DNA of 57,964 bases, from IMG/VR virus record IMGVR_UViG_3300045988_085825; one strand, 5' to 3'. Position numbers and translations under genes: made by a program. Shown here piece by piece: positions 1,008-53,814 of the stretch; the first letter of the stretch is position 1, and every line of letters starts with the position of its first letter. The notes beneath the pieces are model-generated. The model searched no databases. It was given only the letters and a program-made list of their open reading frames with translations, and had not been told where the DNA came from. Source of the DNA: a virus.

Positions 1008-1074
1008 GCAAAACCGGTCGTAAAAATTTGCGGCCGCTGACCGAAAACAGTTATCGGTAGAAAGTGAGGAAATA

Positions 1075-2156: not shown

Positions 2157-2396
2157 ATGGTTTTCGATCATAAAGTCAAATACAAAGGTAAATGGTATCT
2201 TCCTGGTGAAGAAATCGAAGAGGTAGAGGAATCTGCCTCTTCTTTGCCTTTTGAGAAAGCGCATACCAAAACAGAAATTAACAGAATGAGCGTTGATGAT
2301 CTGAAAGCTCTGGCGGCAGAGAATGACGTTCCGGGATATGAGGATATGACCGGTACGGCTCTGAAAGAGTATTTTATCAATCTGCTCAATTTGTAG
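2157..2396 (+). CDS. Hypothetical protein with C-terminal Rho-N/SAP-like motif
   Basis: Start moved to ATG 2157. The C-terminal SVDDLKALAAENDVPGYEDMTGTALKEYF resembles a Rho N-terminal/SAP helix pair. Confidence 0.45.
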   Translation: MVFDHKVKYKGKWYLPGEEIEEVEESASSLPFEKAHTKTEINRMSVDDLKALAAENDVPGYEDMTGTALKEYFINLLNL

Positions 2397-6337: not shown

Positions 6338-7051
6338 ATGAGAATTAATGTACATGCCGGACATAACCCGGCAGGAAAGGTAGCTTGCGGAGCAGTAGGA
6401 CTTATCAATGAGTCAACCGAGGCCAGAAGAGTAAAGGATGAGGTAATCAGTCAGTTCCGGCAGCTGGGACATACGGTCTATGACTGTACCGTGGATAATG
6501 GCACGGGACAGAAAGACGTATTACAGAAAATCGTGCAGAAATGCAGACTGCATGAAGTTGATCTGGATGTATCTATCCACTTCAATTCCGGCGCGAATGA
6601 TAAATCTGGCAATGGTAAGACAACCGGAGTCGAGGTACTGGTCTACTCTGCGTCCAGCAAAGCAAAAGTCTATGCTGAAAAAGTCTGTGCTGCTATTGCA
6701 AGATTAGGCTTCCGGAATCGTGGTGTAAAGGTAAATTCCAGTCTGTATGTGCTGAAAAATACCAAGGCGCCTGCAATGCTGGTTGAGTGCTGCTTCGTGG
6801 ACGATAAGGACGATGTGAAGCTCTACAATTACTATGAGATGGCATCCGCTATCGTTTACGGAATCACCGGCGAGAAGGTCTCTGCGACCTCTGAAACCGA
6901 AAAGGCAGATGCAGGTGAGGAAACTACCACTGGCAATCCAAAAGCTCTTTATCGGGTGCAGGTGGGCGCATACGGGGTAAAAGAAAATGCGCAGGCAATG
7001 GCAGACAAACTGAAAAAGGCCGGTTTTGATGCGGCAATCGTGCAGGCATAA
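6338..7051 (+). CDS. N-acetylmuramoyl-L-alanine amidase endolysin with C-terminal SPOR domain
   Basis: Amidase_3-like N-terminus (MRINVHAGHNP...VSIHFNS...ECCFVDD) and a SPOR-like tail (YRVQVGAYGVKENAQAMADKLKKAGFDAAIV). Confidence 0.85.
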   Translation: MRINVHAGHNPAGKVACGAVGLINESTEARRVKDEVISQFRQLGHTVYDCTVDNGTGQKDVLQKIVQKCRLHEVDLDVSIHFNSGANDKSGNGKTTGVEVLVYSASSKAKVYAEKVCAAIARLGFRNRGVKVNSSLYVLKNTKAPAMLVECCFVDDKDDVKLYNYYEMASAIVYGITGEKVSATSETEKADAGEETTTGNPKALYRVQVGAYGVKENAQAMADKLKKAGFDAAIVQA

Positions 7052-7068
7052 TTTTAGTCTGATTTTAT

Positions 7069-7105
7069 GGGGCAGTAGGTGTCAAAGCTTACTGCCCTTT
7101 TTTGC
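7069..7105 (+). terminator. Intrinsic terminator after the endolysin gene
   Basis: GGGCAGTAGG...CTTACTGCCC stem followed by TTTTTTG. Confidence 0.7.
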
Positions 7106-7117
7106 TTATAACGAGCG

Positions 7118-7155
7118 ACCGGACACCGTTTTAGGTGTTCGCTAACCATCTAAAA
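7118..7155 (+). promoter_or_regulatory. ACCG-hairpin-CGCTAACC element, copy 1 (before the tape measure gene)
   Basis: ACCG, stem CGGACACC/GGTGTTCG (one G-U pair), loop GTTTTA, then CTAACC ATCTAAAA. Confidence 0.5.
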
Positions 7156-7177
7156 ACTAATGGTGGAGGTGAAATAA

Positions 7178-12407: not shown

Positions 12408-13016
12408 TTATTTCTTTAATCCGATAAAATAACTTACATAGAGGTTCCCATTAATCGCTGCGTTTGTGTATAATTCTATTCTCCCATCTTTATAATTTGA
12501 TGGTACAACAGTCATCCCATATCGCTGTGTTCCAACTATCATAGCAATACATATAGGTTCTTTCTCATATTCGGGGTAATGATTATATGGAAGATATCCA
12601 ATGCCACCGTTAAAATCTATTGCGGATGTACCAATTATGATTTTATCTGCGTCTATCTTCTCAGTTAGTTCACGAGCTTCTGAAAGAATTTTCGTTGCCT
12701 TTACGTGGCTTTCATCCCATGCACCGGCTGGATGGGCAGTGGTGAATTTCCATACTTTGTTATTGTGAATAGTATAATCACCAACAGCATAATCAACTTC
12801 TGGATTAAATTCATCCCCAATGTCGTCGTATGCCTGATTAACAGCAGCATTGGTTTCATTCATATTCTTTGCAGAGAAAGTGCTTCCAACAGATTGATAA
12901 TCAGTAACATCTTCCAGAGATTTTGTTCCATTGCTGTTTTCGGTAACATTATACTGCCGTTTTCCGTTCATAGATTCTGCTAAAATATCATCTGTAAAAT
13001 TTGTTTTTAATGCCAT
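12408..13016 (-). CDS. Tail fibre / receptor-binding protein (tentative)
   Basis: Last gene of the minus-strand tail-tip operon. The motif YAVGDYTIHNNKVWKFTTAHPAGAWDESHV resembles a CBM5/12-type carbohydrate-binding repeat (recall). Confidence 0.5.
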   Translation of the reverse strand: MALKTNFTDDILAESMNGKRQYNVTENSNGTKSLEDVTDYQSVGSTFSAKNMNETNAAVNQAYDDIGDEFNPEVDYAVGDYTIHNNKVWKFTTAHPAGAWDESHVKATKILSEARELTEKIDADKIIIGTSAIDFNGGIGYLPYNHYPEYEKEPICIAMIVGTQRYGMTVVPSNYKDGRIELYTNAAINGNLYVSYFIGLKK

Positions 13017-13423
13017 TATACTTGCACTCCTTTCATATTTCCAAATCTAAAAGCCAATCTTATAAGTCCGGCTTTTTGCCTGTCTAATAAATTGTACATG
13101 TTTAGTATTGCTGACTCGATTCTGTTCAGTTCATCGTATGTAATAAATACACCATTTGGTACAAATGTCTGCCTGTCACCAAAATCTTGAGTAAAAATAT
13201 TTTGATTTATTTTTTCAAGATTTTCTTCAAATTTGTTTATTTCGCTTGCGTAGATATAATCTACATAGGTTTTTTCTGGGCCCATGTCTCGTGTGTTAAA
13301 AGACATATAAAGGGTTTCCGCTTTATTTTTCAGAAAATCCAGGTTTCCTTTTATGCGGTTGTAATCAGATATATTAAATCTGTCACTGACCGTCCAGTTC
13401 GTTTTTAGTTGAATCCACGCCAT
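13016..13423 (-). CDS. Tail fibre-associated protein
   Basis: 135 aa, start/stop-coupled to both neighbours within the tail-tip operon. Confidence 0.35.
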   Translation of the reverse strand: MAWIQLKTNWTVSDRFNISDYNRIKGNLDFLKNKAETLYMSFNTRDMGPEKTYVDYIYASEINKFEENLEKINQNIFTQDFGDRQTFVPNGVFITYDELNRIESAILNMYNLLDRQKAGLIRLAFRFGNMKGVQV

Positions 13424-13424
13424 A

Positions 13425-15659
13425 TCACAGCACCGCCTTTCTTGCTTTCAATAATCCACTCCATGCAGCAGAAAATTTTAATTCATTCTGATAAGCACGC
13501 ACCATTGTATTTTCTCTGTTTTTTAGCTCTAAAAAGAAAAGATCGTTTGCATCAGTCCTCGGATCTCCGTTCCATGATATTTCATATTCCACATCACCTA
13601 AATAGTATGTAGACAACCATTTTTCAATGTCCACAGCCATTTCCAATGAGCTTACCAGAGGATTTTTCCATGTTTTTTCGGTTCCTGTCTGATTGTGAAT
13701 TTTTGAATAGGTTTGCGTATCTTGCAAATATTCCTGCCCGCTTACAGAAATCCTCACTTTTTCTCCTACGGTTCCGACAATATTTACTTTTACAAAATAG
13801 CTGCTGCTATCAATGATTGACAATGTTGTATTAGCAGATTCCGTGGATACTGAGAATCCGTAAGAAGCTTTTGCAAGATATACTGTATACTCCTGCGTTG
13901 CTGATTCTAAAAGCACCTCTTCCGATGTAAGCTCTTTTATGGCTTCTGGATTTTCTTTGTAAATCGTTCTTTCTACGGATATAGATTTTATTCTTTCTTG
14001 CCGTGTTTCTCTTGGAGAAGTAGAAAGATTAAAGTCTCTGGATAAAACGTAATCCGTTGAATCTCCAAATATAATATTGTCTATCGTTACTCTGGCATTT
14101 GGATGCCCTTTCGTAAACTCAATTTCTACTTTGTCGAATCGGTCTAATTGTCCAAGGTATCCTTGTTGTAATTCTGGATTTGACACGGTGTATTCTAATA
14201 CAGTGGTTCCCAAGTAAGAAGTTTTTACTGAGTATTCTGCCGGAGCAACATTCCTAAAATAAATCATCATTCCGTAGCAGATATATCCTGATTCTAATGT
14301 GATCGTGATTTTCGGATTGTTTTGAAAATTACCATTTTCGTCAGCCAATTCGCTACTTACATATCCTATATTATCAATATATTTGCCGTTTTCCGGTACA
14401 AATTTCACAGTCCCGTTCACAGAAGAAAAATCATTACTTCCCATTGCATATGCTTCTTTTTGACTGTAACTAAGTATGTTTTGAGATCTGCTAAACTCGG
14501 TTTCTCCGTTGGTTTCTGCTGTCATATCAGGGACAAAAGATGATTTGATGTTAATTCGCCCTTTCCGATCCACGCTTAAAACACAACGTCCGGCATTAGA
14601 TATAATCTGTAATGCTTCAGAATGCTTTACTGCCGGAACAGGATTGTATACGATTACGTTTTTCAAATATTCGTCTATATAGTATTCCTCATCCTTCATT
14701 CCGGCATCTGTGAAAACATCAACAGCCAAGTCATATAAAGATATTCCGCTGTTCCGATATAAACCATTGTAATACACGGTATTTAACTTCCAGTAAAACA
14801 CATCAACCATGGTAAATTCTGCTTGTACATCGTTTGCGCTCCATGACTTAAGGTATGTAGTAATTTCTGGAACCCATTCAATATCACCTTTTCCAGTTAC
14901 ATCGTATCCAAACGTGACTTTCATTTCCTGCCCTTGTTCAAGATATGCAATAGCTGATTCTGAATTTTCAGGACTGTAATATAGGTTCTGGTTATCCACA
15001 ACAAGGGTCATGTCTTGACTTGGTACAGATTCACAAATCGGAGATACAAAATCTTTATAAGAAAAAGATTTGACCTCGTTATTTGAGAAAGTATTGGAAA
15101 TTCCGCAGGTAAACTGTAAAATCCGCATTCTTCCCTGCCCATTAACCATAGCTACCGGTGTTATCCGCAGGAACGTTACCGCATCGAATGTGTCCTCGGT
15201 AACAAATATTTTTCCAGAATTTTCATAGGTTTTCGTTCCGTTATCCGACTGTATTGTAAAAGATGTCGGGTGACATTCTCCGAAATCAATCGTGAGTCCT
15301 TTGATATCAGCAAAGTTCCCAACAAAAGAAATATATATTGATTCCAGAAGCCCAGAAGTTACCATTCCGTTGTTATAAAAATCATAATCAGAATATTCTT
15401 CTGGCAAAAAATACATTGTCCCATCAACTTTAGAAAAATCTTGCTCCATAGTTGCATATATCTTCTTTACAGTATTATCTTTGAAAGGAGCAGTATTGTT
15501 TGCGAAATAAGCAAAAACATTATTTTTATCATCCGCAATTATATTTTCTGTAGCAATTGAACTGACAATTCCAATTCTGGCAGATATATATCCTCGGTTC
15601 CTAAATGGCTTCTTCATTGCGTCTTTGTATTCTTTACTTGCATTTTGCATGTTAATCAC
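13425..15659 (-). CDS. Tail tip / baseplate protein (Tal-like)
   Basis: 744 aa, second gene of the tail-tip operon. It contains two similar internal segments (SKVDGTMYFLPEE.. and SSVNGTVKFVPENG..). Confidence 0.55.
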   Translation of the reverse strand: MINMQNASKEYKDAMKKPFRNRGYISARIGIVSSIATENIIADDKNNVFAYFANNTAPFKDNTVKKIYATMEQDFSKVDGTMYFLPEEYSDYDFYNNGMVTSGLLESIYISFVGNFADIKGLTIDFGECHPTSFTIQSDNGTKTYENSGKIFVTEDTFDAVTFLRITPVAMVNGQGRMRILQFTCGISNTFSNNEVKSFSYKDFVSPICESVPSQDMTLVVDNQNLYYSPENSESAIAYLEQGQEMKVTFGYDVTGKGDIEWVPEITTYLKSWSANDVQAEFTMVDVFYWKLNTVYYNGLYRNSGISLYDLAVDVFTDAGMKDEEYYIDEYLKNVIVYNPVPAVKHSEALQIISNAGRCVLSVDRKGRINIKSSFVPDMTAETNGETEFSRSQNILSYSQKEAYAMGSNDFSSVNGTVKFVPENGKYIDNIGYVSSELADENGNFQNNPKITITLESGYICYGMMIYFRNVAPAEYSVKTSYLGTTVLEYTVSNPELQQGYLGQLDRFDKVEIEFTKGHPNARVTIDNIIFGDSTDYVLSRDFNLSTSPRETRQERIKSISVERTIYKENPEAIKELTSEEVLLESATQEYTVYLAKASYGFSVSTESANTTLSIIDSSSYFVKVNIVGTVGEKVRISVSGQEYLQDTQTYSKIHNQTGTEKTWKNPLVSSLEMAVDIEKWLSTYYLGDVEYEISWNGDPRTDANDLFFLELKNRENTMVRAYQNELKFSAAWSGLLKARKAVL

Positions 15660-16069
15660 TCCAGACCTGCATCAATAAGATTAAATTTACAATTCTCATA
15701 CTTTGTAACAATGTGAGAATCTTGGTCTGCAAATAATGGAACACCGGTCCTGTCTCCAGGATACATTGTAACGGTGATCGGTTTTCCTGTCCGGTAGTCC
15801 TCAAAAGTTACCGGCACATAAAATGGTTCTACTGCCTTTAACATTCTTTGCCATGTTTCTGCATCCAGCATTGCCCATTCCAGATTGTTCAGCTTAAAAA
15901 TGTCTCTTCCTACTCGCTGTCCAATAACTGCATTGTTGGCATTTCGTCCAGAATTTACCGTTGTGCTGATAATATATGAAAATCCAACTCTCGGGCACGG
16001 AAAATCCACTCCATTTACATTCAAAAACGATGACATTCCTCCGCCCGATCGCACAGTCCTTATTGCCAT
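15656..16069 (-). CDS. Distal tail protein-like, first gene of the tail-tip operon
   Basis: 137 aa with a GGAGGTG RBS. Assigned by position upstream of the Tal-like gene. Confidence 0.4.
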   Translation of the reverse strand: MAIRTVRSGGGMSSFLNVNGVDFPCPRVGFSYIISTTVNSGRNANNAVIGQRVGRDIFKLNNLEWAMLDAETWQRMLKAVEPFYVPVTFEDYRTGKPITVTMYPGDRTGVPLFADQDSHIVTKYENCKFNLIDAGLE

Positions 16070-16120
16070 GTAGGCACCTCCATTCTTGGCAGAGGTGCCA
16101 TCAGGCAGTCTGCCAGTATC

Positions 16121-16160
16121 TTTTTCTGGTTAGCGGATACCTGCATCTTCGGCACCCGGT
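16121..16160 (-). promoter_or_regulatory. ACCG-hairpin-CGCTAACC element, copy 4 (minus strand, before the tail-tip operon)
   Basis: The reverse complement reads ACCG GGTGCC gaagatgca GGTATCCG CTAACC AGAAAAA. The stem has two G-U pairs. Confidence 0.5.
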
Positions 16161-16166
16161 ATGTTT

Positions 16167-16979
16167 TTACTCTATCAATTTTGCTTTTAAGTTCCGGCGG
16201 ATAGAACCGGACATAAAGTGGGACAGGCTCTTTTCTATGCCCTCCCGGTATTTCGCCTGCATGTACATATCAATTAACGGTATGTACTGGTCCAGCGTCC
16301 ACACATCATCCATGATTCCGTATTCGTCCTCGTCTTGATGCAGGTAATTGTATACGATATTGCTAATAGCCGGTCGTGTGAGTGGCTTATGCGGCTTTCC
16401 TTGCGTTCTGGCATATTCATTTACAAAGTATTCGGTTATGTCTTTCAACTCTTCTCTATAACCGCTAGCAAGAGCTTCCCCTTCTTCCGTCATTGCCTCG
16501 TTAATAGCTTTTGTAACCATAGGAGATAACGTACCTCTTTCAGATGATGGTGAGACCTCTTTTTCCCCAGAAAAAGAGCATACTCTCATACTATTATCTT
16601 CTATATTTCTATCTATTTTACTATCTATATGTCTTTGTTCTATTTTTTGAGATGGAGACTCACTTTTTTTATCATCCAGACTACTAAATTTTGTTAGGCA
16701 GACTCTCAAAAATCGTTTGCGTCCATCAAATTTGCCAATTTTTACGTATCTAAGTTTAATTAACTTGCTGATACTAGCAGATACTTTGGATACACTGCAC
16801 TGGCAAAATTCTGCCAAATATTCATTGCTAGCATAGCATCCTCCATTTTCCTCGACATCTAAGCTGTTGATCTCTGCCAGAATAAATTTATCAATTGCGC
16901 TTAATTTATCATCAAGCCAAACTTCCTTTGGAATAAAAATCCCCTTAAAATCTCTTGGATACTCAAATCCCTTTTCCAT
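16167..16979 (-). CDS. HTH DNA-binding protein (replication-initiator/DnaD-like N-terminus)
   Basis: The N-terminal pattern FIPKEVWLDDKLSAIDKFILAEI..ASNEYLAEFCQCSVSKVSASISKLIKLRYV resembles initiator-type winged HTH domains (recall). AGGAGG RBS. Confidence 0.5.
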   Translation of the reverse strand: MEKGFEYPRDFKGIFIPKEVWLDDKLSAIDKFILAEINSLDVEENGGCYASNEYLAEFCQCSVSKVSASISKLIKLRYVKIGKFDGRKRFLRVCLTKFSSLDDKKSESPSQKIEQRHIDSKIDRNIEDNSMRVCSFSGEKEVSPSSERGTLSPMVTKAINEAMTEEGEALASGYREELKDITEYFVNEYARTQGKPHKPLTRPAISNIVYNYLHQDEDEYGIMDDVWTLDQYIPLIDMYMQAKYREGIEKSLSHFMSGSIRRNLKAKLIE

Positions 16980-17096
16980 ATACTCTACCTCCTACAAATA
17001 GACTCCTACATTTATGAAAAACAACTGGCAGGCGGTGTAGGATTTCCGCTTTTCGTGTTGCAATCACTAGCCAGTTGGTTTTACCAATTTCAGACA

Positions 17097-17285
17097 AACA
17101 AAAAACGCTCACCAGACACAGTATTTCTACCATGTCCAGTGAGCGTGATTCTCAAAAAGTTTGCCGTCCTTGCTCGATTCGCCCTATCCTTTGCGCCCCG
17201 TTCTCCCCTCAACGGCAAGCCGGGCGGAGCTGGCGGATTCGGTTAAATTTTCTTATATTGTAACATTTTTTTTAATTTATATCAA
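17097..17285 (-). promoter_or_regulatory. Promoter, GC-rich structured leader and intrinsic terminator (leader B)
   Basis: On the minus strand: TTGATA-17-TACAAT (17285..17257), a leader of about 110 nt, then the stem CGCTCAC/GTGAGCG (17145..17106) plus a U-run. It shares GAGCAAGGACGG with the terS leader. Confidence 0.55.
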
Positions 17286-17289: not shown

Positions 17290-18054
17290 TTATTGGTCGA
17301 TTACTAATGCAACATAACCAATTACATTATCAATGTCAGATTCGGAGCATCTGAATCTGTTATCCCTGATGCTCACATATTCAAACTTCCCATTTCCGCA
17401 AGGACTTCTACGGGCAATAAAGACATTGTTGCCATAAATGATAATGCTGTCCTCAGCAGGACGTGGATTGCGATCATTGGCAATCAGGAGAATGTCATAT
17501 GGAGAATAATGCGGCATATAGTTGTCAACCGATGTTTTTATGCCCATGAAAATTTGCGGCTTGATATTTTGCGGAATATCAGTGATATCAAGGGATTCAA
17601 AATCGCCGGAAACATGTAACGTTCCGTCTGGATGTTCCTCCAGATTCATCACAGGGACGGTCTTTCTTCCTTGCCTGAAACCGCCTAAAGAAAGATTGTA
17701 TTGCCTGCGGACGAACCAACGGACAAAATACTGGGAATGTCCTGGCATTTGCCGAAACATGGTGATACAATCCATGTCCTCTTCTGAAATTGTGTCAAGA
17801 CCGATCAATTCATCCACTGTAACACCTATAGCCTTTGCTAAGAGTGCAGCAGTGGACAGCTTGCAATCTTTTGAGTTTTGATACAACAGATTTTTAAGCG
17901 TGTCAAATGAAATGCCAGCGGATTCAGCCAGTTCATGAATGGTAATATCTGAATGCTTTAAGCAGATGTCTAAATTATAACGCAAATTTTCTGCAAAGCT
18001 ATCGTTTTCTTTGGTAAAATATTCCGATAAGTTATACAGATTTTCCTTTTTCAT
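17290..18054 (-). CDS. CI-like repressor (XRE HTH plus S24/LexA-like C-terminal domain)
   Basis: HTH segment ITIHELAESAGISFDTLKNLLYQ. The C-terminus aligns by eye to the S24 fold, but the Ser/Lys positions appear to be replaced. Confidence 0.7.
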   Translation of the reverse strand: MKKENLYNLSEYFTKENDSFAENLRYNLDICLKHSDITIHELAESAGISFDTLKNLLYQNSKDCKLSTAALLAKAIGVTVDELIGLDTISEEDMDCITMFRQMPGHSQYFVRWFVRRQYNLSLGGFRQGRKTVPVMNLEEHPDGTLHVSGDFESLDITDIPQNIKPQIFMGIKTSVDNYMPHYSPYDILLIANDRNPRPAEDSIIIYGNNVFIARRSPCGNGKFEYVSIRDNRFRCSESDIDNVIGYVALVIDQ

Positions 18055-18164: not shown

Positions 18165-18193
18165 ATTTTACTTTTTTAGAAAAAATCTGTCAA
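18165..18193 (-). promoter_or_regulatory. Candidate promoter of the CI-like repressor
   Basis: On the minus strand: TTGACA (18193..18188), 17-nt spacer, TAAAAT (18170..18165). Confidence 0.5.
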
Positions 18194-18254
18194 TATTTCC
18201 AGATGCCCAATCGTTTTACATATTACTGCATAATTCGACATAATTTGATATATA

Positions 18255-18284
18255 TTGACAAAATAAGAACATATGTTCTATAAT
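18255..18284 (+). promoter_or_regulatory. Early promoter with embedded GAAC-N4-GTTC (Cheo/LexA-type) palindrome
   Basis: TTGACA 18255..18260, 18-nt spacer, TATAAT 18279..18284. The perfect palindrome AGAACATATGTTCT lies at 18266..18279. Confidence 0.6.
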
Positions 18285-25430: not shown

Positions 25431-26030
25431 ATGAGTAAAGCATTGGATATGGCAAGGAAACTGGTTAAGAAGCTGGAAGAAGAGGAAAAACAGTCGAAAG
25501 TGCAGCTTTCAACTTTGAATCCGGGAGATGTATTCAAAATTGGAGAGCATGATTTTATTGTACTGACGCAGTACAGAGAGGAAACGGCAGTAATTTCCAA
25601 AGGATTCATGGCTGAAAATGTGAAATTTGATGAGGATTCGAGAAACTATAAAGAGTCAAATCTGAAAAAGGTTATCGAAAATCTGATCCAGCCGGTTATT
25701 GAGAAGGAAGTCGGATCAAAAAACCTTATTGAGCATGAGGTTGATCTGACAAGTGTAGATATGCAGGACGAATTAGGAAGAGATAGATGCAAAGTCAGAC
25801 CTATAACATTTGATGAAGCACGACAGTATAACGATTTACTGGTTAATAAAAACCTTAATGATTGGTGGTGGACATGCACACCTTGGAGCACAGAAGACAG
25901 AGGATGGAAATATTCAATTGCCGTTGTTGCTCCGACCGGCATTATCTACGACAACGATTGCGATTTCAGCCGCGGTGTTCGCCCGTTTTGTATCTTAAAA
26001 TCTAATATCTTTGTATCGAAGGGAGAATGA
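25431..26030 (+). CDS. DGR target protein (DUF6273-like C-type-lectin-fold candidate, recall)
   Basis: 199 aa. The C-terminus WWWTCTPWS...VVAPTGIIYDNDCDFSRGVRPFCI carries the VR. Confidence 0.8.
   Translation: MSKALDMARKLVKKLEEEEKQSKVQLSTLNPGDVFKIGEHDFIVLTQYREETAVISKGFMAENVKFDEDSRNYKESNLKKVIENLIQPVIEKEVGSKNLIEHEVDLTSVDMQDELGRDRCKVRPITFDEARQYNDLLVNKNLNDWWWTCTPWSTEDRGWKYSIAVVAPTGIIYDNDCDFSRGVRPFCILKSNIFVSKGE
25918..25994 (+). repeat. DGR variable repeat (VR)
   Basis: 65/77 identity to 26534..26610. All mismatches but one correspond to adenines in the other copy. Confidence 0.85.
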
Positions 26031-26814
26031 AAATGGGATTAACAATGAAAGCATTGCAGGAACAGATTGATGTGTTAAAAAAGAAATGGAAGAGCTGAGA
26101 AGCGGCCAGAAAGTAGAATGCAACAAGAAATTTTCCAAATTTCTTACTATTGGTGAAACATTTGAACTGGCGGGAGTTAATTGGAAGATTATTGATATCA
26201 CAAGTGACGGTCATGTTTGCCTGTCTGATTCTATAGGTGAAATGAAATTCAGCTCTGAAAACAATGACTGGAGAACCAGCAATCTTCGGAAGTATTTGAA
26301 TGAAGAATTTTTGAAAAAGATTGAATCAGAAATCGGAGCAGGTAATCTGATAGGATTTGAAAGAAATCTTCTTTCTTTGGACGGCCAGACGGAGTACGGA
26401 ACCTGTGATGATAAAGTGTCACTTTTGACAGTGGATGAGTACCGGAAATACAGAAGGCTGATTCCAAATACAGGTGATTGGTTCTGGTTGATTTCTCCGT
26501 GGAGTACACCTTGCAATGATTTCAAAAACAGTGTTACCGTTGTTGCTCCGACCGGCAATATCAACAACAACAATTGCAATAACAGCAACGGTGTTCGCCC
26601 ATTCTGTATCAAACAGATAGTTAGAGTAGGCAGTAAGCCGAAATCAGAAAAAGATACAAAAAAGTGTATGACCTTCCCGAATAGGGTAAATACAAAGGAA
26701 TTTTTACAATGGATAAAGATGTTATATGCAGCTATGAAAATCTGTATAAGGCATACCGGAAGGCTAAAACTGGCAAAGGTTTTAATGGAAGCTGTGCAAA
26801 ATTTCAGACTATGA
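26027..26814 (+). CDS. Paralogue of the DGR target carrying the TR; needs a -1 shift at A AAA AAG
   Basis: The start (ATGA-coupled 26027, or ATG 26033 after GGGAG) opens a 21-23 codon frame. The heptamer AAAAAAG at 26077..26083 leads into the long ORF tracked from 26086. Confidence 0.55.
26534..26610 (+). repeat. DGR template repeat (TR)
   Basis: Adenine-rich, reading G N I N N N N C N N S N G in frame. It lies 98 nt upstream of the RT start. Confidence 0.85.
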
Positions 26815-27734
26815 ATCTGGAAGGACTTCACTTATTGAAAGAACAACTGGAAAATCAGACATACCGGTTGAATCCGTACAACGAATTTAAGGTTTACGAA
26901 CCGAAAGAAAGAGTGATTAAATCGTGTTCTTTCAAAGACAAAATAGTCCAGCATTGTTTATGTGATGAAATTCTGCATCCTGCATTAAAGGATCGTTTTA
27001 TCAGTACGAATTATGCCGGGCAGCAGGGGAAAGGTACTCATTTTGGAATGGATTGCTTGAAAGAGCAAATGATTGATTTTTATGAAGAACATAGACTTGA
27101 TGGCTGGATTCTTAAATGTGACATTAAAAAGTTTTTCTACCAGATAGACCATGAGATCCTAAAAAGAATTGTTGACTATCACTTTCCAGATGAGTACACC
27201 AAATGGTTGAATCACCTGTTTATTGACAGTACAGAAGGTTTGGGGCTTCCACTCGGGAATCAAGTAGCTCAGGTATATGCACTTCTGATGCTAGATGGTA
27301 TGGATCACTTCATTACCGAAACACTTGGAATTTCCAGATATGGAAGATACATGGATGATTTTTACCTGATTTATACAGATAAAGAGTATTTGAAGTTTTG
27401 CTTGGAGCAGATTCGAGATTTTCTTGGAAGTCTGGGACTTGAATTGAATGGAAAGACACAGATTGTCCCATTCAAATGCGGAATAGCATTTACAGGTTTT
27501 CATCACTACGTAACATTGGACGGAAAATACATAAGAAAATTGAGCGGCACAAACAAACGAAAGATGCGTAAGAAAATCAGGAAATGGTCAGAACTGATTA
27601 GGTCCGGGAAAATGACGGAAGAAAAATTTTTTGAGAAGTACAACGCTTGGAAAAACCATGCATTACATGGAAATTGCATTAAATTGTGCCACTCGATGGA
27701 TTTATATGTAAAAGAATTATTGGAGGAAAAGTAA
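26709..27734 (+). CDS. DGR reverse transcriptase
   Basis: 341 aa with a YMDD box (GRYMDDFYLI) and the DGR-type motif LPLGNQVAQVYALLML. Confidence 0.9.
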   Translation: MDKDVICSYENLYKAYRKAKTGKGFNGSCAKFQTMNLEGLHLLKEQLENQTYRLNPYNEFKVYEPKERVIKSCSFKDKIVQHCLCDEILHPALKDRFISTNYAGQQGKGTHFGMDCLKEQMIDFYEEHRLDGWILKCDIKKFFYQIDHEILKRIVDYHFPDEYTKWLNHLFIDSTEGLGLPLGNQVAQVYALLMLDGMDHFITETLGISRYGRYMDDFYLIYTDKEYLKFCLEQIRDFLGSLGLELNGKTQIVPFKCGIAFTGFHHYVTLDGKYIRKLSGTNKRKMRKKIRKWSELIRSGKMTEEKFFEKYNAWKNHALHGNCIKLCHSMDLYVKELLEEK

Positions 27735-34822: not shown

Positions 34823-35205
34823 GCAGAAAAACAATTCCGAAAAAGACAAGACTGGAACTGTATGAAAAATACAATCACAGATGCGGCTACTGTGGCTGCG
34901 AAATAGCCTATAAGGACATGCAGGTGGATCACCTTAAGCCGGTATATGTGCACGGTGAATATCTGGGAGATATGGATTCAGAGCAATTAAACGACATATC
35001 AAATTTTATTCCGGCATGTAGGCAGTGCAATTTGTATAAATCCACTTTCGAGCTGGAAGAGTTCCGGGAACGCTTAAAGGTTACGATGATGGAAAATCTC
35101 AGGAAGGATTTCCGGTACCGACTGGCAGTGAAATATGGATTGATAGAAGAAAAAGAACAACCGATTGTGTTTTATTTTGAAAAAATGGAGGAGAGCCATG
35201 ATTGA
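34819..35205 (+). CDS. HNH endonuclease
   Basis: HRCGYCGCEI...QVDHLKP...NFIPACRQCNLYK. Confidence 0.8.
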   Translation: MSRKTIPKKTRLELYEKYNHRCGYCGCEIAYKDMQVDHLKPVYVHGEYLGDMDSEQLNDISNFIPACRQCNLYKSTFELEEFRERLKVTMMENLRKDFRYRLAVKYGLIEEKEQPIVFYFEKMEESHD

Positions 35206-35614
35206 AAAAGATATAAGCCAGTATTTATCACTGGAGCAACGAGCAAGAAATTTATTTGGTGAAAATTATGATCTGGAGAACTGTGTTGAAGAACTTAGGC
35301 AGTACCGAAATACCACGTTATCACCGGAACAAGTGAGAACTCTTCAAAAACGTTTTTTAGATGTATCCCTTCGGTTGGACGAATATATGGCAATCGGTAC
35401 GCCGGAAGAATGGAGGGAAGCGGTTACGAAGCAGATATCAAGACATCCGGTCGATAAAACGAAGCCAGATAGTGGATATGGAAATTATTATGAAAATGCT
35501 CGTGTAATCGTGTGCCCTAACTGCAATGGAAGATTAAAATTGAAATCTAAAGGAAAATATTGTGATAAATGCGGGCAAAAACTAAGCTGGGAGAATCATG
35601 ATGTCACGAAATAA
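35198..35614 (+). CDS. Hypothetical zinc-ribbon protein
   Basis: Start at ATG 35198. Contains CPNCNG...CDKCG. Confidence 0.5.
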   Translation: MIEKDISQYLSLEQRARNLFGENYDLENCVEELRQYRNTTLSPEQVRTLQKRFLDVSLRLDEYMAIGTPEEWREAVTKQISRHPVDKTKPDSGYGNYYENARVIVCPNCNGRLKLKSKGKYCDKCGQKLSWENHDVTK

Positions 35615-38884: not shown

Positions 38885-39412
38885 GTGAAGAGGTTTGTCC
38901 GGACAATAAAGCTGGCTTTACTCCGAGATAAAATGAAAAGCCAAAAGGAACGAAGTGCGGAACTATACAAAAGCAGAAAAGAAAGCGGTCTGTGTCCCAG
39001 ATGTGGGAAACCGCTAGATAGAGATGGACATTATTGTTCTGAGTGTTTGGAAAAAGAAAGAGAATATCGCAGTGAAACAAAAAAATTTTGTAAGGAAAAC
39101 GGAATTTGTCCGGTCTGCCATAAAGAAAAGTTGTATGGAGACGAGAAACAATGCATATTATGCAGAGAGTATCACTGGGAGTATGGCATAAAGAATCCAC
39201 TAACCGATCAGCAGAAAGAAAAGTACAGAAACCGTTTTCGTGAGACGCAAAAAAAATTATATGCAGAAAGAGTATCGAATGGTATATGCACCAGATGCGG
39301 AAAACTAAAAGTAGTTCCAGGAAGGAAAAAGTGTGGAATCTGCCTTGAAAAAGACATGATTTTGCACAGAAACAGGAGGGCTTATGAGGTCGAACTTCAA
39401 CAGACTAAGTAA
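38885..39412 (+). CDS. Multi-zinc-ribbon hypothetical protein
   Basis: Four CxxC pairs. Start uncertain (GTG 38885 or ATG 38933). Confidence 0.45.
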   Translation: MKRFVRTIKLALLRDKMKSQKERSAELYKSRKESGLCPRCGKPLDRDGHYCSECLEKEREYRSETKKFCKENGICPVCHKEKLYGDEKQCILCREYHWEYGIKNPLTDQQKEKYRNRFRETQKKLYAERVSNGICTRCGKLKVVPGRKKCGICLEKDMILHRNRRAYEVELQQTK

Positions 39413-39719
39413 GCCGGAAGTTGATTTTTTGTTAGATAACTGTAATTTTTCGGAAGATGAAATCATACTATTTAAAATGGCAAGTGCTGGAAGCAGCGAT
39501 GTTCAGATTGCGGAGAAACTGTGCATGTGCGTTTCCAGCATTACCAAGAAGAAAAAAATAGTCAGACGTAAAATAAAAGAGTTTTTGGAGGTATCTGGCA
39601 ATATGACTACAATCTATGTCAATGGTAAGCGTGTGACAAAAGAAGAACTCAAAAACAATGAAATTCAGATAGAGTCAGTAAAAAAAATACTGTCAGAGAA
39701 ATTGACGAAAAGTAAATAG
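39384..39719 (+). CDS. Sigma-70 region-4-like HTH protein (candidate late activator)
   Basis: SEDEIILFKMASAGSSDVQIAEKLCMCVSSITKKKKIVRRKIKEF. It is the last gene of the early operon. Confidence 0.55.
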   Translation: MRSNFNRLSKPEVDFLLDNCNFSEDEIILFKMASAGSSDVQIAEKLCMCVSSITKKKKIVRRKIKEFLEVSGNMTTIYVNGKRVTKEELKNNEIQIESVKKILSEKLTKSK

Positions 39720-42160: not shown

Positions 42161-42233
42161 TAGCATATTAGAGGTTTGTGCACAAAACCTAGGGAATCTC
42201 TTTATGAATATATTTTACGGAGGTAAATCTAAT

Positions 42234-43007
42234 ATGTTTAATGGCAACAATACACCTTTTACGATGCCGGTAATGCCTGCTAACACAGGTGGTTACGGAA
42301 ATGGTGGAGCATGGGGAGACGGCGGATGGCTCTGGATCATCGTCGTATTCGCACTTCTTTTTGGCTGGGGTAACAACGGCTGGGGAGGATTTGGCGGAGG
42401 AAACGGCGGTGGTTATGTAGCAACAGCAGCTACCCAGGCAGACATCCAGCGTGGTTTTGATAATCAGGCGGTTATCAGCAAACTTGACGGAATTTCTAAT
42501 GGATTGTGTGATGGTTTTTATGCCGTGAATAACGGTATGCTTACCGGATTCAATGGAATCAACACAAACATCATGCAGACCGGATTTGGAATTCAGCAGG
42601 CAATCAATGCAGATACCATTGCCAATATGCAGAACACCAATGCATTGCAGGCACAGCTTGCAAATTGCTGCTGCGAAACCCGTGAAGCTATTCAGGGTGT
42701 AAACTACAATATGGCACAGAATACCTGCGCTTTGCAGAACACAATGAACAGCAACACCAGAGACATCATCGACAGTCAGAATGCAGGAACCCGTGCAATC
42801 CTTGACTATCTGTGCCAGGAGAAAATCTCTGCTCTTCAGGCAGAGAATAGTGATCTTCGTCGGGCAGCTTCTCAGGATCGCCAGAGCGCACTGCTCACCA
42901 ATGCAATGTCTGCTCAGACACAGCAGATCATTGATGCGGTACGTCCGACACCGGTTCCATCATATCCGGCATCTAACCTTTATGGTTATGCAGGTTGCGG
43001 ATGCTGA
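42234..43007 (+). CDS. Gly-rich membrane protein with Asn/Gln-rich coiled region and C-terminal CGC
   Basis: GGYGNGGAWGDGGW, the TM segment LWIIVVFALLFGW, GGFGGGNGGG, then an N/Q-rich region. Start at ATG 42234 after GGAGG. Confidence 0.5.
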   Translation: MFNGNNTPFTMPVMPANTGGYGNGGAWGDGGWLWIIVVFALLFGWGNNGWGGFGGGNGGGYVATAATQADIQRGFDNQAVISKLDGISNGLCDGFYAVNNGMLTGFNGINTNIMQTGFGIQQAINADTIANMQNTNALQAQLANCCCETREAIQGVNYNMAQNTCALQNTMNSNTRDIIDSQNAGTRAILDYLCQEKISALQAENSDLRRAASQDRQSALLTNAMSAQTQQIIDAVRPTPVPSYPASNLYGYAGCGC

Positions 43008-45984: not shown

Positions 45985-46061
45985 GTTTTCCCTTTCTAGC
46001 CTACCATCATCAGAGCCGGGAGGCTGTCCCACGGCTGACGCCCTCACGGGCGTTTCGGCTG

Positions 46062-48006: not shown

Positions 48007-48201
48007 TTGACAAATTGAGAGATTATGGATATTATTATAACTAACTTAAGCCGAGGCGCGCAGGTTCTCCCAGAGTCCGTAGAGGGATAAAAGAGCCGAA
48101 CAACGCGAGAGGTAGTAAGAGCAAGGACGGACAGAAACACAAGCAAAGTGTAGCACGCTCGTAGATCAGACTTTAACAGGTCTTTTCTACGGGCGTTTTT
48201 T
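48007..48201 (+). promoter_or_regulatory. Promoter, GC-rich structured leader and intrinsic terminator upstream of terS (leader A)
   Basis: TTGACA 48007, 17-nt spacer, TATTAT 48030. The 10-bp stem 48156..48165/48186..48195 is followed by T6. It shares GAGCAAGGACGG (48119..48130) with leader B. Confidence 0.55.
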
Positions 48202-48234
48202 ATTTCCCAGAAATCCCAGAAGGAGGTGCAGAGC

Positions 48235-49795: not shown

Positions 49796-49868
49796 TGGGG
49801 TATCGCCAAGTGGCTAAGGCACAGGATTTTGACTCCTACATTCGCCGGTTCAAATCCGGCTATCCCAG
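49796..49868 (+). tRNA. tRNA-Gln (anticodon UUG)
   Basis: Hand-folded cloverleaf: acceptor TGGGGTA/TATCCCA, T-arm GCCGG-TTCAAAT-CCGGC, anticodon loop TTTTGAC. Closely resembles bacterial tRNA-Gln. No encoded CCA. Confidence 0.85.
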
Positions 49869-50160
49869 TTTGGGAGTTGCCGCTCCCAGAAACCATATGG
49901 CATGTTTTTCATATAGTTTCTCCTTTTAAGACCCACTAGCGGAAAGCTGATTAAAGAGCCATCGCACGGCTCGGTGGGTTTTGGGTTTCGCTGCGGTAGT
50001 TACCCGTGGATTTCATCATTCCCTGTACAAAAGAATCGCAGCAGGCGATTGTATCAAAAGTGTGGTGCCTTGGCGCAATCGTCTCAGTTCGCCGTCAACG
50101 TAAAGGCTGGCAGGTGCTTGCATATCACCTAAAACGTCATGGAGCTGACATATGCAATTT

Positions 50161-50232
50161 TGGAACATAGCTCAGTGGTAGAGCTTCCGGCTTATATCCG
50201 GAGAGTCCCGGGTTCGATTCCTGGTGTTCCAA
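50161..50232 (+). tRNA. tRNA-Ile (anticodon UAU)
   Basis: Acceptor TGGAACA/TGTTCCA, D-arm GCTC-AGTGGTA-GAGC, anticodon arm TCCGG-CTTATAT-CCGGA, T-arm CCGGG-TTCGATT-CCTGG. Confidence 0.8.
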
Positions 50233-50301
50233 TTTTCTTTTGACAGCACATCAAGCTCATGGTGATGCTCTATCCCGAATTTTGAAATGGAGGGGAAGAA
50301 A

Positions 50302-50729: not shown

Positions 50730-50893
50730 TGGAACATCGAAAAGAATGGCACACTTGCGACAGGTGCGGTGCAGAAATTAAAAAAGGAATATTGTGCGGA
50801 AATTCGATTACAAAGAATGGTATTTTAAATGTCACATACGACTTGTGTTGTAAATGCATGGAAGATTTTGAGAGGTTTATGAAGAGTGAGTAA
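50729..50893 (+). CDS. Zinc-ribbon hypothetical protein
   Basis: Start coupled by a TAATG overlap. Contains CDRCG...CCKC. Confidence 0.45.
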   Translation: MEHRKEWHTCDRCGAEIKKGILCGNSITKNGILNVTYDLCCKCMEDFERFMKSE

Positions 50894-51164
50894 GATTAAA
50901 GAAATACTTCATTGTCTGCGACTTGATAGCAGAATAAGGCACAATATAAGATATGCACAAAGAGAATGGTTCTTTTCGTACTTTAAACATTTTAGAAGAG
51001 ATTTAAACATACCACTACTCAATAGCATCAAACAAGCAAGAGGAATATCAAAAACTATTTTAGAGAGAGGGTATATGTCGGACCTTGTACATGATTCTGT
51101 AATGCGTATTAGATATTCAAGGAGATGCAACACTCGTGTGTGCAGGGCAGCTAGGAATGATTAG
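50886..51164 (+). CDS. Hypothetical protein (weak call)
   Basis: GTG start with no clear RBS. Confidence 0.3.
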   Translation: MSKIKEILHCLRLDSRIRHNIRYAQREWFFSYFKHFRRDLNIPLLNSIKQARGISKTILERGYMSDLVHDSVMRIRYSRRCNTRVCRAARND

Positions 51165-52319: not shown

Positions 52320-52499
52320 ATGCTTACTAAATTTAATCGTTTTGCTATTTTCCCAAGGATGTGTAGTTCATGTCATAGATATATATTTCTGGAAAAATAT
52401 CGTAGAGCAGATGTTTTTCATCATTTTGCAGATGTTCCTAATGGACATCCGTTTTGGAAGGAAAACATTTGCCGGGAATGTATAAAAAAGTATAGTTGA
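52320..52499 (+). CDS. Small Cys-rich protein
   Basis: ATG 52320 after AAGGAGG. Confidence 0.45.
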   Translation: MLTKFNRFAIFPRMCSSCHRYIFLEKYRRADVFHHFADVPNGHPFWKENICRECIKKYS

Positions 52500-52506
52500 A
52501 ACAATT

Positions 52507-52542
52507 ACCGACTGAATATTGGTTCAGTCGCTAACCTAGAAA
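52507..52542 (+). promoter_or_regulatory. ACCG-hairpin-CGCTAACC element, copy 2
   Basis: ACCG, stem CGACTGAA/TTCAGTCG (perfect), loop TATTGG, then CTAACC TAGAAA. Confidence 0.5.
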
Positions 52543-52579
52543 GTTAAATGTAGAAGATTATCGGTTTAGGAGCGATAGA

Positions 52580-53224
52580 ATGAATATAATTCAGATACCG
52601 TCTGACCATAAAATGTTTAATGAAGAATTTGAAGGTTCATTAGAAAATTTTATTTATGATGAATTTGCACTCATGTATACAGAAGGCGATAACATAATTC
52701 TTGGATTTACAGTATTTTTCGACCCTTTTGTTGAAAAATTAGAATTTTATCTTTTGAATTATTTTGGAGAATGGATACGAGACGTGGTTTATCGAATAGA
52801 ATTGAACGATAAGATGAATTGCGGATACAATGTATATTGTAATAAAAGTGAAAATAAATATCTTGAAATCGGACATGAACTTGGTGGAATTGTTTTGAGG
52901 ACAATGCTGTACATAATGAACACACCGAGAGAAAGAACAGAAAGACCGAAAAGCACTAAAATTCCTAACACACAAAAAGCCGAAAGTAAAGTAAATAGAG
53001 AGAATAAGATTTATTTACTTGATGAAATTGTTGATTATGTCAACCAAAACGGATTATGTAGCATTAAAAATAACAGCCATAAGATAAAATGCCCTTGCTG
53101 GAGTGTTAGAGGACATTACAGACATTATAAGAGTGGGAAAATTACGTTTATAAAAAACTACGAAAAAGGAAAAGAAAAAGAAAAAGGGAAAGTCAAGCCA
53201 AAAGACAAGACTTACACAATTTGA
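52580..53224 (+). CDS. Hypothetical protein (AT-rich cassette)
   Basis: 214 aa with a Lys-rich C-terminus. Confidence 0.5.
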   Translation: MNIIQIPSDHKMFNEEFEGSLENFIYDEFALMYTEGDNIILGFTVFFDPFVEKLEFYLLNYFGEWIRDVVYRIELNDKMNCGYNVYCNKSENKYLEIGHELGGIVLRTMLYIMNTPRERTERPKSTKIPNTQKAESKVNRENKIYLLDEIVDYVNQNGLCSIKNNSHKIKCPCWSVRGHYRHYKSGKITFIKNYEKGKEKEKGKVKPKDKTYTI

Positions 53225-53240
53225 AAGGAAGGAATTTGAT

Positions 53241-53618
53241 ATGCTTATAGAAAAATTTGAGAAATTTATTGTTAAATGTTACATAAAAAGAATAGCAAAA
53301 AAAAACGCTGAAAAATATAAGAGTATTGCAAATGAAAGTTATTACAAATGCGCATTTAAAATGTTAAGGGAATATTTTCCAAATCTTTCAGAAAAACAAT
53401 ATAGTCAAGTATACAGTAAAATCGAAGGTTTATTAGTTACAAAAATTTTTGATTTGACAACGAACAAATCATATGTATCATATAGAGATAATGGAAGATT
53501 TTTGCGTGATTTTGCATACATATGTGATTTTTTAAAATCTGAGCAAGAGACAGACGAAGATTCTTACAAAAAGATTCTTTCAGAAAGGAAAACCAGCGAT
53601 GGACCATCTTGTATTTGA
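53241..53618 (+). CDS. Hypothetical protein (AT-rich cassette)
   Basis: 125-aa ORF. Confidence 0.45.
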   Translation: MLIEKFEKFIVKCYIKRIAKKNAEKYKSIANESYYKCAFKMLREYFPNLSEKQYSQVYSKIEGLLVTKIFDLTTNKSYVSYRDNGRFLRDFAYICDFLKSEQETDEDSYKKILSERKTSDGPSCI

Positions 53619-53814
53619 GAAAGCTAATATTCCAGTGGCAGTTGCTGCAAAGGCTTTGAACGTTGATGCTCAGACAGTACGTTTGTTATTGCAGAATAAG
53701 CTTGTTGATTGGGGAATAGCTTATAAAAGACCGGGAAGTAGCCAGTACAGTTACATAATTTATCCTAAAAAATTTTATGAAGAAACCGGATTTTATTATA
53801 GCGGAAAAGAATAA
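53599..53814 (+). CDS. Small HTH-like protein (AT-rich cassette)
   Basis: VAVAAKALNVDAQTVRLLLQNKLV. Confidence 0.45.
   Translation: MDHLVFEKANIPVAVAAKALNVDAQTVRLLLQNKLVDWGIAYKRPGSSQYSYIIYPKKFYEETGFYYSGKE

Follow-up and report, generated by a model that had tools for sequence, protein, structure and literature searches.

The viral DNA considered here, IMG/VR record IMGVR_UViG_3300045988_085825, comprises 57,964 nucleotides, and this whole stretch is referred to as the window. Five copies of a compact element of about 55 nt are found in it, placed before the major capsid gene, the tape-measure gene, the tail-tip operon, an AT-rich cassette and terL, and all five are intergenic and lie in the same orientation as the gene downstream. 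The element consists of two adjacent hairpins, and this two-hairpin RNA, which is absent from Rfam, is probably a previously uncharacterised element for the control of late-gene expression. Hundreds of gut phages carry it immediately ahead of the ribosome-binding sites of head, tail and packaging genes. To our knowledge, late-gene control in temperate siphoviruses of gut Bacillota is essentially unstudied.

The capsid copy (1013..1064, +) lies within the 67-nt gap that precedes the major capsid gene, assigned by Pfam Phage_cap_E. It begins with ACCG and continues with a first hairpin (P1, 1015-1022 paired with 1029-1036, including two G·U pairs), the box CGCTGACC (1035-1042) and a second hairpin (P2, 1041-1044 with 1054-1057), after which GGTAGAAAG and the Shine-Dalgarno (SD) sequence GTGAGGA are found; the copy itself lies 11 nt before the capsid start (ATG 1075). 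The tape-measure copy (7118..7170, +), before the gene starting at ATG 7178, has P1 at 7120-7127/7134-7141, the box at 7140-7147 and P2 at 7146-7149/7160-7163, with the SD sequence GGAGGTG (7165-7171) directly 3' of P2. On the minus strand, the tail-tip copy (16106..16160), which has orthologues in 14 relatives, pairs 16158-16151 with 16141-16134 in P1 (two G·U) and 16129-16126 with 16116-16113 in P2, and its box spans 16135-16128. The cassette copy (52507..52557, +) has a perfect P1 (52509-52516/52523-52530), a box at 52529-52536 and a degenerate P2 of three base pairs at best. Finally, the terL copy (53822..53874, +), found in essentially every relative, has P1 at 53824-53831/53839-53846 with one A·C, the box at 53845-53852 and P2 at 53851-53854/53864-53867, followed by GGCAGAGG.

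Four of these copies had been reported in a preliminary description of the sequence, and their positions, strands, stems and mismatches agree with ours. The exact motif CGCTAACC occurs four times in the 58-kb window, against 0.73 expected from dinucleotide-preserving shuffles, and these occurrences are the four reported sites, in keeping with the earlier remark that no further one was found by eye. The count of four has nevertheless to be raised to five, as the capsid copy, which reads ACCG-GTCGTA/aaaatt/TGCGGC-CGCTGACC and is found on allowing one mismatch, had been missed. A first covariance model places the five window sites at 43-56 bits, with nothing else above 12.6 bits. A second model, which includes the downstream hairpin, gives them 45-73 bits (capsid 49.7, tape-measure 45.2, tail-tip 51.3, cassette 45.6 and terL 72.8), the next best site reaching 12 bits. 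The covariance-model E values of the five copies range from 1e-9 to 1e-22. The model hits in the window also bear out the placement described earlier, with copies oriented towards late gene blocks. The label of tail-tip operon appears reasonable too, as its first gene directly follows the tape-measure gene in relatives.

The consensus can be written as 5'-AC-CGR-N5 (loop of 6-9 nt) N5-YCG-CU(A/G)(A/C)-CCNN (loop rAAAAnrUUA) NNGG-YRGA, that is, the 8-bp hairpin P1, a linker CU(A/G)(A/C), the 4-5-bp hairpin P2 and a purine-rich GGYRGA after it. Apart from its conserved C-G/G-C base and a third pair that is an R·Y wobble, P1 is free in sequence, and its loops vary between copies both in length (6-9 nt) and in sequence. 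P2 was recognised by folding the leaders and comparing paralogous copies: the CC of the CTAACC box and the next two bases pair with NNGG about 13 nt downstream, closing a loop that in the consensus is 9 nt long, A-rich and ends in UA. The A-rich tail of the preliminary description corresponds to the 9-10 nt loop of this second hairpin, whose stem has 4-5 bp.

The inner pairs of P2 covary among the tail-tip, tape-measure, capsid and terL copies of the window (CCAG/CTGG, CCAT/ATGG, CCGA/TCGG and CCTA/TAGG, respectively). Relatives add CCAA/TTGG, CCGC/GCGG, CCTT/AAGG, CCTG/CGGG and CTGC/GCAG, and also TTAC/GTAA, in which even the CC/GG of P2 is swapped out. The key covariation test used 26 diverse copies aligned with MAFFT without any fitting to a structure. 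In this alignment, pairing amounts to 95.8% over the 12 base pairs of P1 and P2, ten of which present compensatory double changes; the covariation score is 0.637, compared with 0.198±0.025 after shuffling and at most 0.125 when the partners are slid by 1-3 columns. The same picture is obtained from model-fitted alignments of 97 hits, although such alignments lean towards the model's own structure. With regard to strand, 39 of 56 distinct sequences have G·U as the third P1 pair and seven have A·C, both of which are wobble geometries, and outside that position G·T outnumbers A·C in P1 by 19:6, so that only the sense strand folds well.

Judged from these sequence comparisons, the element is a structured RNA on the sense strand and not a promoter, a cruciform or a terminator. 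The preliminary description had taken the stem covariation as pointing to either a structured RNA or a cruciform DNA site; the covariation is real and belongs to a sense-strand RNA, and the cruciform is discarded, given that G·U pairs are found on one strand only and that a stem of only 4 bp closed by a loop of 9 nt is unable to extrude from the duplex. Furthermore, a palindromic protein site needs no complementarity at positions that are not recognised, which excludes cruciform and promoter readings of the helices.

A role at the DNA level has also been considered, in which the element would be a late promoter, or part of one, for a phage sigma factor, activator or RNA polymerase, its hairpin acting as a DNA structure in the manner of N4 early promoters. 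Multiple oriented copies directly before structural genes with short leaders would fit such a role, as would their frequent position right behind a terminator and at module joints, like the PeSLs, promoter-terminator stem-loops that flank shuffled genes of T4-type phages (PMC2839356, PMC4122927). However, neither P2 (4 bp, 9-nt loop) nor P1 (6-9-nt loops) can extrude from duplex DNA, the covariation includes G·U on one strand only, the spacing from ACCG to the box is 18-21 nt and not fixed, sigma-70-type scans of two regions gave no site inside the copies, and a polymerase or sigma domain is absent from the open reading frames (ORFs) tested. This makes a late promoter decidedly improbable.

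Several specific promoter types were rejected individually. No sigma-70/sigma-A-type hexamers 16-18 bp apart were found inside the copies in the two regions scanned; a 9/12 sigma-70-type site ends 10 nt upstream of the cassette copy. The string TAnnGG, 13 nt past the box, might be taken for the end of a T7/SP6-like promoter or for a -10 element; it is the 3' arm of P2, its distance from CTRACC is 8-10 nt and its variable bases covary with the bases after CC. An extracytoplasmic-function sigma promoter with ACCG as -35 and CGCTAAC as -10 would call for a fixed spacer of 16-17 bp between AAC and CGT motifs. The spacing from ACCG to CGCT is 18, 18, 19, 21 and 18 nt in the five copies, and the spacer is a covarying helix. 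TGGCAG...TTGC, present in the tail-tip and terL copies, was dropped as a sigma-54 site because relatives do not keep the motif, and so was a sigma-A promoter further upstream with its start at the A of ACCG, since the flanks are unrelated ORF ends without a consistent TAnnnT. As for an N4-type hairpin or a promoter of a single-subunit RNA polymerase, the large ORFs contain no polymerase domain, the loops measure 6-10 nt and a 4-bp P2 is implausible in DNA.

The preliminary description had proposed a late promoter recognised by one of two sigma-region-4-like proteins. There are no hexamers at a workable spacing, and searches with Pfam, NCBIfam, PHROGs and PDB revealed neither a phage RNA polymerase or sigma factor nor a NusG/LoaP-, Q- or ANTAR-type protein. 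Neither of the two proteins (55666..56082 and 39384..39719) has a sigma or helix-turn-helix (HTH) match in Pfam even at E<=5. The product of 55666..56082 (+) matches PHROG 36, annotated as transcriptional regulator, and that of 39384..39719 (+) has a 63%-identical homologue beside the integrase gene of Dulem virus 39, where a convincing element is absent.

With regard to the unpaired parts, ACCGG is present in 99 of 139 copies and CGCTAACC, CGCTGACC or CGCTACCC in 115 of 139, and such conserved unpaired boxes make specific recognition more likely than a generic hairpin. Conservation starts sharply at ACCG. The upstream flanks of the relatives are unrelated, being the ends of different ORFs with a stop codon 6-14 nt before ACCG. 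This boundary bears on an alternative in which the late RNA would be cleaved immediately ahead of the invariant AC, either autocatalytically or by an RNase of the host or the phage. The 5' end so created would have P1 only 2 nt away, and P1 would block 5'-exonucleolytic decay and insulate the ribosome-binding site, the terminator of the upstream fragment serving as its 3' protector. The abrupt onset of conservation after unrelated flanks and the position of P1 2 nt from it are what such a cut would leave. A terminator hairpin often directly precedes the element, the genes served include the most highly expressed ones (major head and major tail), and the use of RNA processing elements by this phage is evident from a hammerhead ribozyme elsewhere in its genome. 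Conversely, a generic stabiliser has no need of a conserved box, P2 loop and wobble pair, no RNase has been identified and no known ribozyme model matches, and we consider a processing site with a 5' stabiliser unlikely.

Known RNA classes were examined as well. Over the whole window, Rfam 15 at the gathering threshold returned two tRNAs, int-alpA and Hammerhead_II, none of them at the copies, and the two copies within 52480..53940 remained unmatched at E<=10. No T-run follows any of the five copies, as had been noted earlier for the absence of a U-tract, and the element is therefore not an intrinsic terminator. On the minus strand, there is no consistent U-run, the G·U pairs become A·C and the terminator scan flags weak look-alikes only.

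A small-molecule riboswitch, with P2 as the switching helix, might be suspected from the compactness of the fold, in which about 20 nucleotides at unpaired or junction positions are conserved, from the overlap of a weak terminal helix with the SD or with an anti-sequestor strand, a feature known from OFF riboswitches, and from a superficial likeness to preQ1-I (a hairpin, an A-rich tract and CUA...GG). Nevertheless, the element is multi-copy and so far phage-restricted, the sole genuine GTDB match among those listed being a prophage; PreQ1 and all other Rfam models miss the two copies within 52480..53940 even at E<=10, and it forms two adjacent hairpins and no pseudoknot, so that an aptamer of this kind seems highly improbable. 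PreQ1-I in particular was rejected because P2 pairs with the linker and not with the P1 loop; RF00522 was found only at an unrelated spot, with 14.5 bits.

Models of known self-cleaving ribozymes (hammerhead, twister, pistol, hatchet, HDV-like) gave no match at the copies. An RNA that works without a protein partner, either a tiny new self-cleaving ribozyme cutting before the invariant AC or a 55-nt put-like element that modifies RNA polymerase, is improbable. The compact fold, the roughly 20 conserved non-helical nucleotides, the kept wobble and the sharp 5' boundary are compatible with it, as are the lack of a conserved protein partner across unrelated phages and the hammerhead of the same genome. 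Cleavage by a ribozyme would give every virion-gene mRNA it frees a structured 5'-OH end, in the manner of a RiboJ-like insulator, and a put-like element would by itself make RNA polymerase resistant to terminators.

The relatives consulted are metagenomic contigs, mostly from one large gut data set and many of them closely related, and the sequences counted as distinct are not independent events. TerL relatives in IMG/VR (80 loci, 89-99% identical) yielded 97 hits, all co-oriented with terL, and the terL copy is found 30-75 nt upstream of terL in practically every one of these loci; the capsid, tape-measure and cassette copies are present in some genomes only. A pattern scan of IMG/VR followed by a model filter added at least 96 hits; many of these come from phages that are clearly different, where 2-3 copies occur per 8-14 kb. 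Overall, at least about 140 distinct copies are available from related and unrelated gut-phage contigs, with one to six copies per genome and 17 families immediately downstream. In the relatives fetched by protein, every hit is co-oriented with its downstream gene. Since the longest stop-free frame across the element is short (median of 34 codons, against 158 in random windows), the elements lie in non-coding gaps. The covariance-model search of relatives, which the preliminary description had suggested, recovered both the stem pairing and the box and did not show many copies in coding regions.

Among the roughly 140 distinct copies, 66 precede TerL genes, 19 tape-measure genes and 12 the Dit-position protein phrog_1194. 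The remaining downstream genes encode major tail proteins (phrog_158), the tail protein phrog_6616, three unrelated major head families (Phage_cap_E, phrog_422 and phrog_544) and a few accessory cassette products just before terL, some of whose sequences resemble DNA methyltransferase or RtcB and others of which have no assigned function. In a GTDB pattern scan, a single genuine match was present among those listed, in a prophage of Eubacterium sp. 14-2 (Lachnospiraceae), the rest being chance matches. This prophage and its relatives carry one copy before an unrelated tape-measure gene, which suggests that the host range is probably gut Clostridia. No copy was found in MT835537 (TerL identity of 48%), and Dulem virus 39 (33%) has one doubtful copy. 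Glycine- and cysteine-rich phrog_16490 proteins have the element in front of them in certain other phages (L327:2065), but their counterpart in the window (42204..43007, +) does not.

The spacing between the 3' end of P2 and the start codon follows a bimodal distribution, with values of either about 8-20 nt or 42-49 nt. In the short class, the SD sequence comes immediately after GGU, typically as GGU-AGAAAGGA-N6-8-AUG, or the SD (AGGUGA, AAAGGAG) overlaps the 3' arm of P2, and the element thus lies 0-5 nt from the SD or overlaps it. In the long class, to which the terL and tail-tip copies belong, the GGCAGA after P2 can pair with a C/U-rich strand, and this same strand is the 5' arm of a stable hairpin that contains the SD. 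Given these two layouts, contact between the ribosome-binding site and the 3' strand of P2 is common to every architecture, whether direct or by way of a relay.

In the terL leader, the relay (53866..53920, +) is a helix between GGCAGAGG (53866-53873), whose GG is common with P2, and CCTTTGCT (53885-53892). It competes with a hairpin at 53880-53912 (+) that holds the SD GGAGGTG, is followed by TTTTCTATT with a U-run, and is flagged as terminator-like by the scan. Across 14 sequence variants of this leader, pairing reaches 98% in the competing helix and 91% in the SD hairpin, and the strand common to both carries C/U changes only, which both G-rich partners tolerate. The start of terL itself deserves a remark: the mechanical ORF start, TTG 53888, falls inside the leader hairpin, and TTG 53918 is likely the real start because of the SD at 53903-53909 and an ATG in relatives. 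The tail-tip leader (16067..16115, -) presents the same three-helix relay built of different sequence, with TGGCAGA (16115-16109) paired to TCTGCCA (16093-16087), the TGG being common with the 3' arm of P2. The competing SD-sequestering hairpin on the same strand pairs GGCACCTC (16099-16092) with GAGGTGCC (16080-16073) ahead of ATG 16069; this sequestor is present in the minimum free energy structure (z -3.5), and the competing helix was read from the sequence.

These layouts lead to the reading that we tentatively favour, in which the element may be an operator or docking RNA for a trans-acting factor that sets the translation and/or the mRNA fate of virion gene blocks. The element, which is fused to the ribosome-binding site of whichever virion gene follows, would be transcribed within late polycistronic mRNAs and bound by a phage or host RNA-binding protein or by the ribosome. 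Docking would then set, for each head, tail or packaging block separately, translation initiation, the stability of the mRNA downstream of the element, or both. In short leaders, the bound or folded element would sit 0-5 nt from the SD or over it, and in the long leaders of terL and the tail-tip operon the 3' strand of P2 would take part in a helix that competes with the SD-hiding hairpin, which at terL is also terminator-like. We favour a factor and its operator because contact with the SD region is the sole feature common to all architectures, because conservation of the unpaired boxes and of the wobble pair calls for a specific partner, and because P2 is too weak to act alone.

Several points weigh against this interpretation. 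P2 is thermodynamically weak and often merely abuts the SD, so that folding alone would not occlude it. Between about 10 and 30% of the copies directly follow an intrinsic terminator, an arrangement more in keeping with a promoter, or with a site that re-arms antitermination, than with a translational operator, and the tight SD spacing could derive in part from compact intergenic regions or from an element-plus-SD module that recombines as a unit. With regard to the partner, no protein among those tested is common to all element-bearing phages, and the RNA-binding partner was not found. Only the core of the tape-measure protein (TMP) and a PGDYG-like ORF of 109 aa are shared with the unrelated Eubacterium prophage locus, and the latter is missing from most relatives.

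The terminators around the copies are central to the main rival of this reading, processive antitermination of the nut/put kind, in which the nascent two-hairpin RNA, alone or with an N-like protein and Nus factors, would modify RNA polymerase so that it reads through the terminators of the late operon, with repeated copies re-arming it every 1-6 kb. The late region of the window contains several intrinsic terminators (2217..2242, 4810, 5452, 7069 and 11440), and a conserved terminator-like hairpin lies 6-16 nt past the terL copy in all relatives. The element likewise offers a hairpin and a conserved single-stranded box, on the sense strand and between genes; the inverted tail-tip operon has its own copy and the co-directional one none; and each of the two late-oriented units opens with a sigma-A-type promoter of consensus sequence, behind which lie a structured leader and a strong terminator, an arrangement like that of lambda PR'-tR'. 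On the other hand, this model does not require an SD fusion that is fixed in more than 30 independent contexts, copies right after a terminator cannot act upon that terminator, and the first terminator of each late unit lies before any copy. The P1 loops are not conserved, unlike those of boxB, and no N-, Q- or NusG-like protein was detected in the ORFs tested; N proteins are small, disordered and undetectable by homology. A lambda-type nut was rejected more specifically, given that the P1 loop is not a conserved purine-rich pentaloop and that the box CGCU(A/G)(A/C)CC matches boxA (CGCUCUUA; consensus CGCUCUU(U)A) in its first four bases, CGCU, only. Antitermination is regarded as somewhat unlikely. 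Of the roles proposed in the preliminary description, the anatomy of an element fused to the ribosome-binding site leans towards a Com-like, translation-linked one rather than a nut/put-like one.

The layout of terminator followed by element is illustrated by the tape-measure copy, 12 nt before which ends the intrinsic terminator of an amidase gene (7069..7106, +; 12-bp stem and T-run). The tape-measure copy may keep its gene expressed past this terminator. The same layout is found with unrelated sequences at L031/L045/L064/L065, L346, L347, L370 and L395. An upstream intrinsic terminator within a few nucleotides accompanies 14 of 137 distinct copies under a strict definition (hairpin and T-run) and about 30% of the non-terL copies when judged by eye. 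The amidase-SPOR (endolysin-like) gene and its strong terminator (6338..7106, +) directly precede the tape-measure gene, an unusual spot for a lysis-type gene.

Leader hairpin sites that adjoin a ribosome-binding site are well known from Mu Com/mom, the MS2 coat-replicase hairpin and the T4 RegA and gp32 operators. These likewise combine a small hairpin with flanking single-stranded bases beside the ribosome-binding site, and occupancy of the hairpin site decides whether an SD-hiding structure forms. Unlike them, the present element occurs one to six times per genome before many non-homologous virion genes, and has two helices and boxes of its own. Compared with lambda nut, rrn boxB-boxA, HK022 put, Bacillus EAR and conAn2, the element is likewise a cis-acting nascent RNA in a long operon with terminators, it shares with rrn the order of hairpin and conserved box, and with put the two adjacent hairpins. 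However, the boxB loop of lambda is conserved and the P1 loop is not, put (about 70 nt) and EAR (about 120 nt) are longer than 55 nt, and, unlike all of these, the element is fused to the SD and its copies often stand after terminators, not before them. The antitermination RNA conAn2 of pLS20 spans 260-600 bp and is far larger (PMC8191782).

ANTAR targets (EutV/AmiR) and PRD/RAT sites resemble the element in having two small tandem hairpins, repeated within one gene cluster, and a downstream strand that, as in the terL copy, competes with a terminator. ANTAR targets have hexaloops with conserved A1 and G4 and a second hairpin overlapping the terminator, and the element has loops of 6-9 nt and 9 nt with other conservation. 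A dual-hairpin ANTAR target was rejected on these differences in loop length and sequence, as most copies also lack a downstream terminator and no ANTAR Pfam match was obtained; no ANTAR or PRD protein was found among the ORFs tested. A literature search for the box sequence and similar motifs retrieved no description. Bulk IMG/VR screens have reported unnamed candidate RNAs before large-terminase and major-capsid genes, and the passages on these candidates state their numbers and downstream genes only (PMC10690425). These come from the same data source and the same kind of genomic position, and the element may be among the candidates listed. We class it as a new RNA family within the known kind of cis-regulatory leader RNA.

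Differences in gene order provide a natural experiment. Where the tail-tip gene is co-directional with the tape-measure gene and follows it after a 14-nt gap, the element is absent; in genomes of the window type, the tail-tip operon is inverted, lies behind a different gene and carries the element at its head. In the window this operon (12408..16979, -) runs against the other virion genes, as it does in about 14 relatives, and in a larger group with 74% identity (e.g., L272) it comes directly after the tape-measure gene.

The AT-rich cassette (52549..53821, +; GC content of 0.27-0.32) is bounded by the cassette and terL copies. Two relatives, L004 and L005, lack the cassette and have a single hybrid element, composed of the left half of the cassette copy and the right half of the terL copy, with the crossover inside CAG[T/C]CGCTAACCTAGAAA. 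In L050 and L022, arrays of 3-4 copies with small cassettes are found, as well as solo copies. From the flanked cassette, the hybrid empty site and the arrays, the comparison of sequences indicates that the element is also a recombination joint for cassettes. The PeSLs are likewise short regulatory motifs at cassette boundaries, where recombination between copies adds or removes cassettes. They consist, however, of a sigma-70 early promoter and a terminator hairpin, whereas the element has neither promoter hexamers nor a U-tract, possesses a second covarying helix and serves late genes.

One compact covarying RNA module is thus reused before TerL, head, tail-tube, tape-measure and baseplate genes of non-homologous virions, and it marks the points where accessory cassettes are swapped. 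If it is an operator, it would constitute a post-transcriptional switch of virion production that these phages share, and could be used as bait for its regulator; if it is an antiterminator, a stabiliser or a ribozyme, it would be a new portable gene-expression part for Clostridia. Either way, it can be used to flag late or structural gene blocks on phage contigs from metagenomes, and the timing of virion synthesis in such phages becomes directly testable.

Other regulatory features were noted in the same genome. Two homologous leaders, 73% identical, are located at 48008..48210 (+) and 17285..17095 (-), the first at the head of the terS-to-terL unit and the second at that of the unit towards the inverted tail-tip operon. 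Their promoters are near-consensus and sigma-A-type (TTGACA-17-TATTAT and TTGATA-17-TACAAT, respectively) and are followed by a structured domain of about 85 nt, an invariant AGCAAGGACGG, a spacer and a strong intrinsic terminator. Across ten sequences from relatives, 33 pairs are predicted, of which 13 present compensatory changes. Neither leader is in Rfam, and the same leader precedes an antirepressor-like gene in other phages. They look like an attenuator, a riboswitch-like leader or a put/qut-type site. Just past the terminator of the minus-strand leader, an int-alpA RNA (17009..17077, -; RF02996, 51.7 bits) precedes a gene of 270 aa that is HTH_36 or replication-initiator-like, and lies downstream of a CI-like repressor gene (17290..18054). 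Beside this repressor, divergent near-perfect sigma-A-type promoters at 18165..18284 (TTGACA-18-TATAAT, +; TTGACA-17-TAAAAT, -) presumably form the lysis-lysogeny switch.

The type II hammerhead ribozyme (45995..46060, -; RF02276, 46.9 bits) lies amid small ORFs of the minus strand. A region at 25431..27734 (+) encodes an RVT_1 reverse transcriptase of 341 aa, with two DUF6273 proteins before it and a RecT-like gene after it, and may be a diversity-generating or other retroelement in the early region. In the unit towards terL, tRNA-Gln(UUG) (49796..49868, +) and tRNA-Ile(UAU) (50160..50233, +) follow a MazG-like gene, and an arginine-rich ORF of 92 aa is located at 50886..51164. Zinc-ribbon ORFs, which are among the candidate binding partners of the element, are present at 38885..39412 and 35165..35614. 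Finally, in relatives (L016:19360, L021:19322, L031:19323 and others), the conserved sequence CTGCCC-CTTGCC-AATATA-GGGCAG-AAA-GGCAAGG is found just before an ORF start, about 9.3 kb past the start of terL, and its interleaved pairs look like an H-type pseudoknot over the ribosome-binding site.

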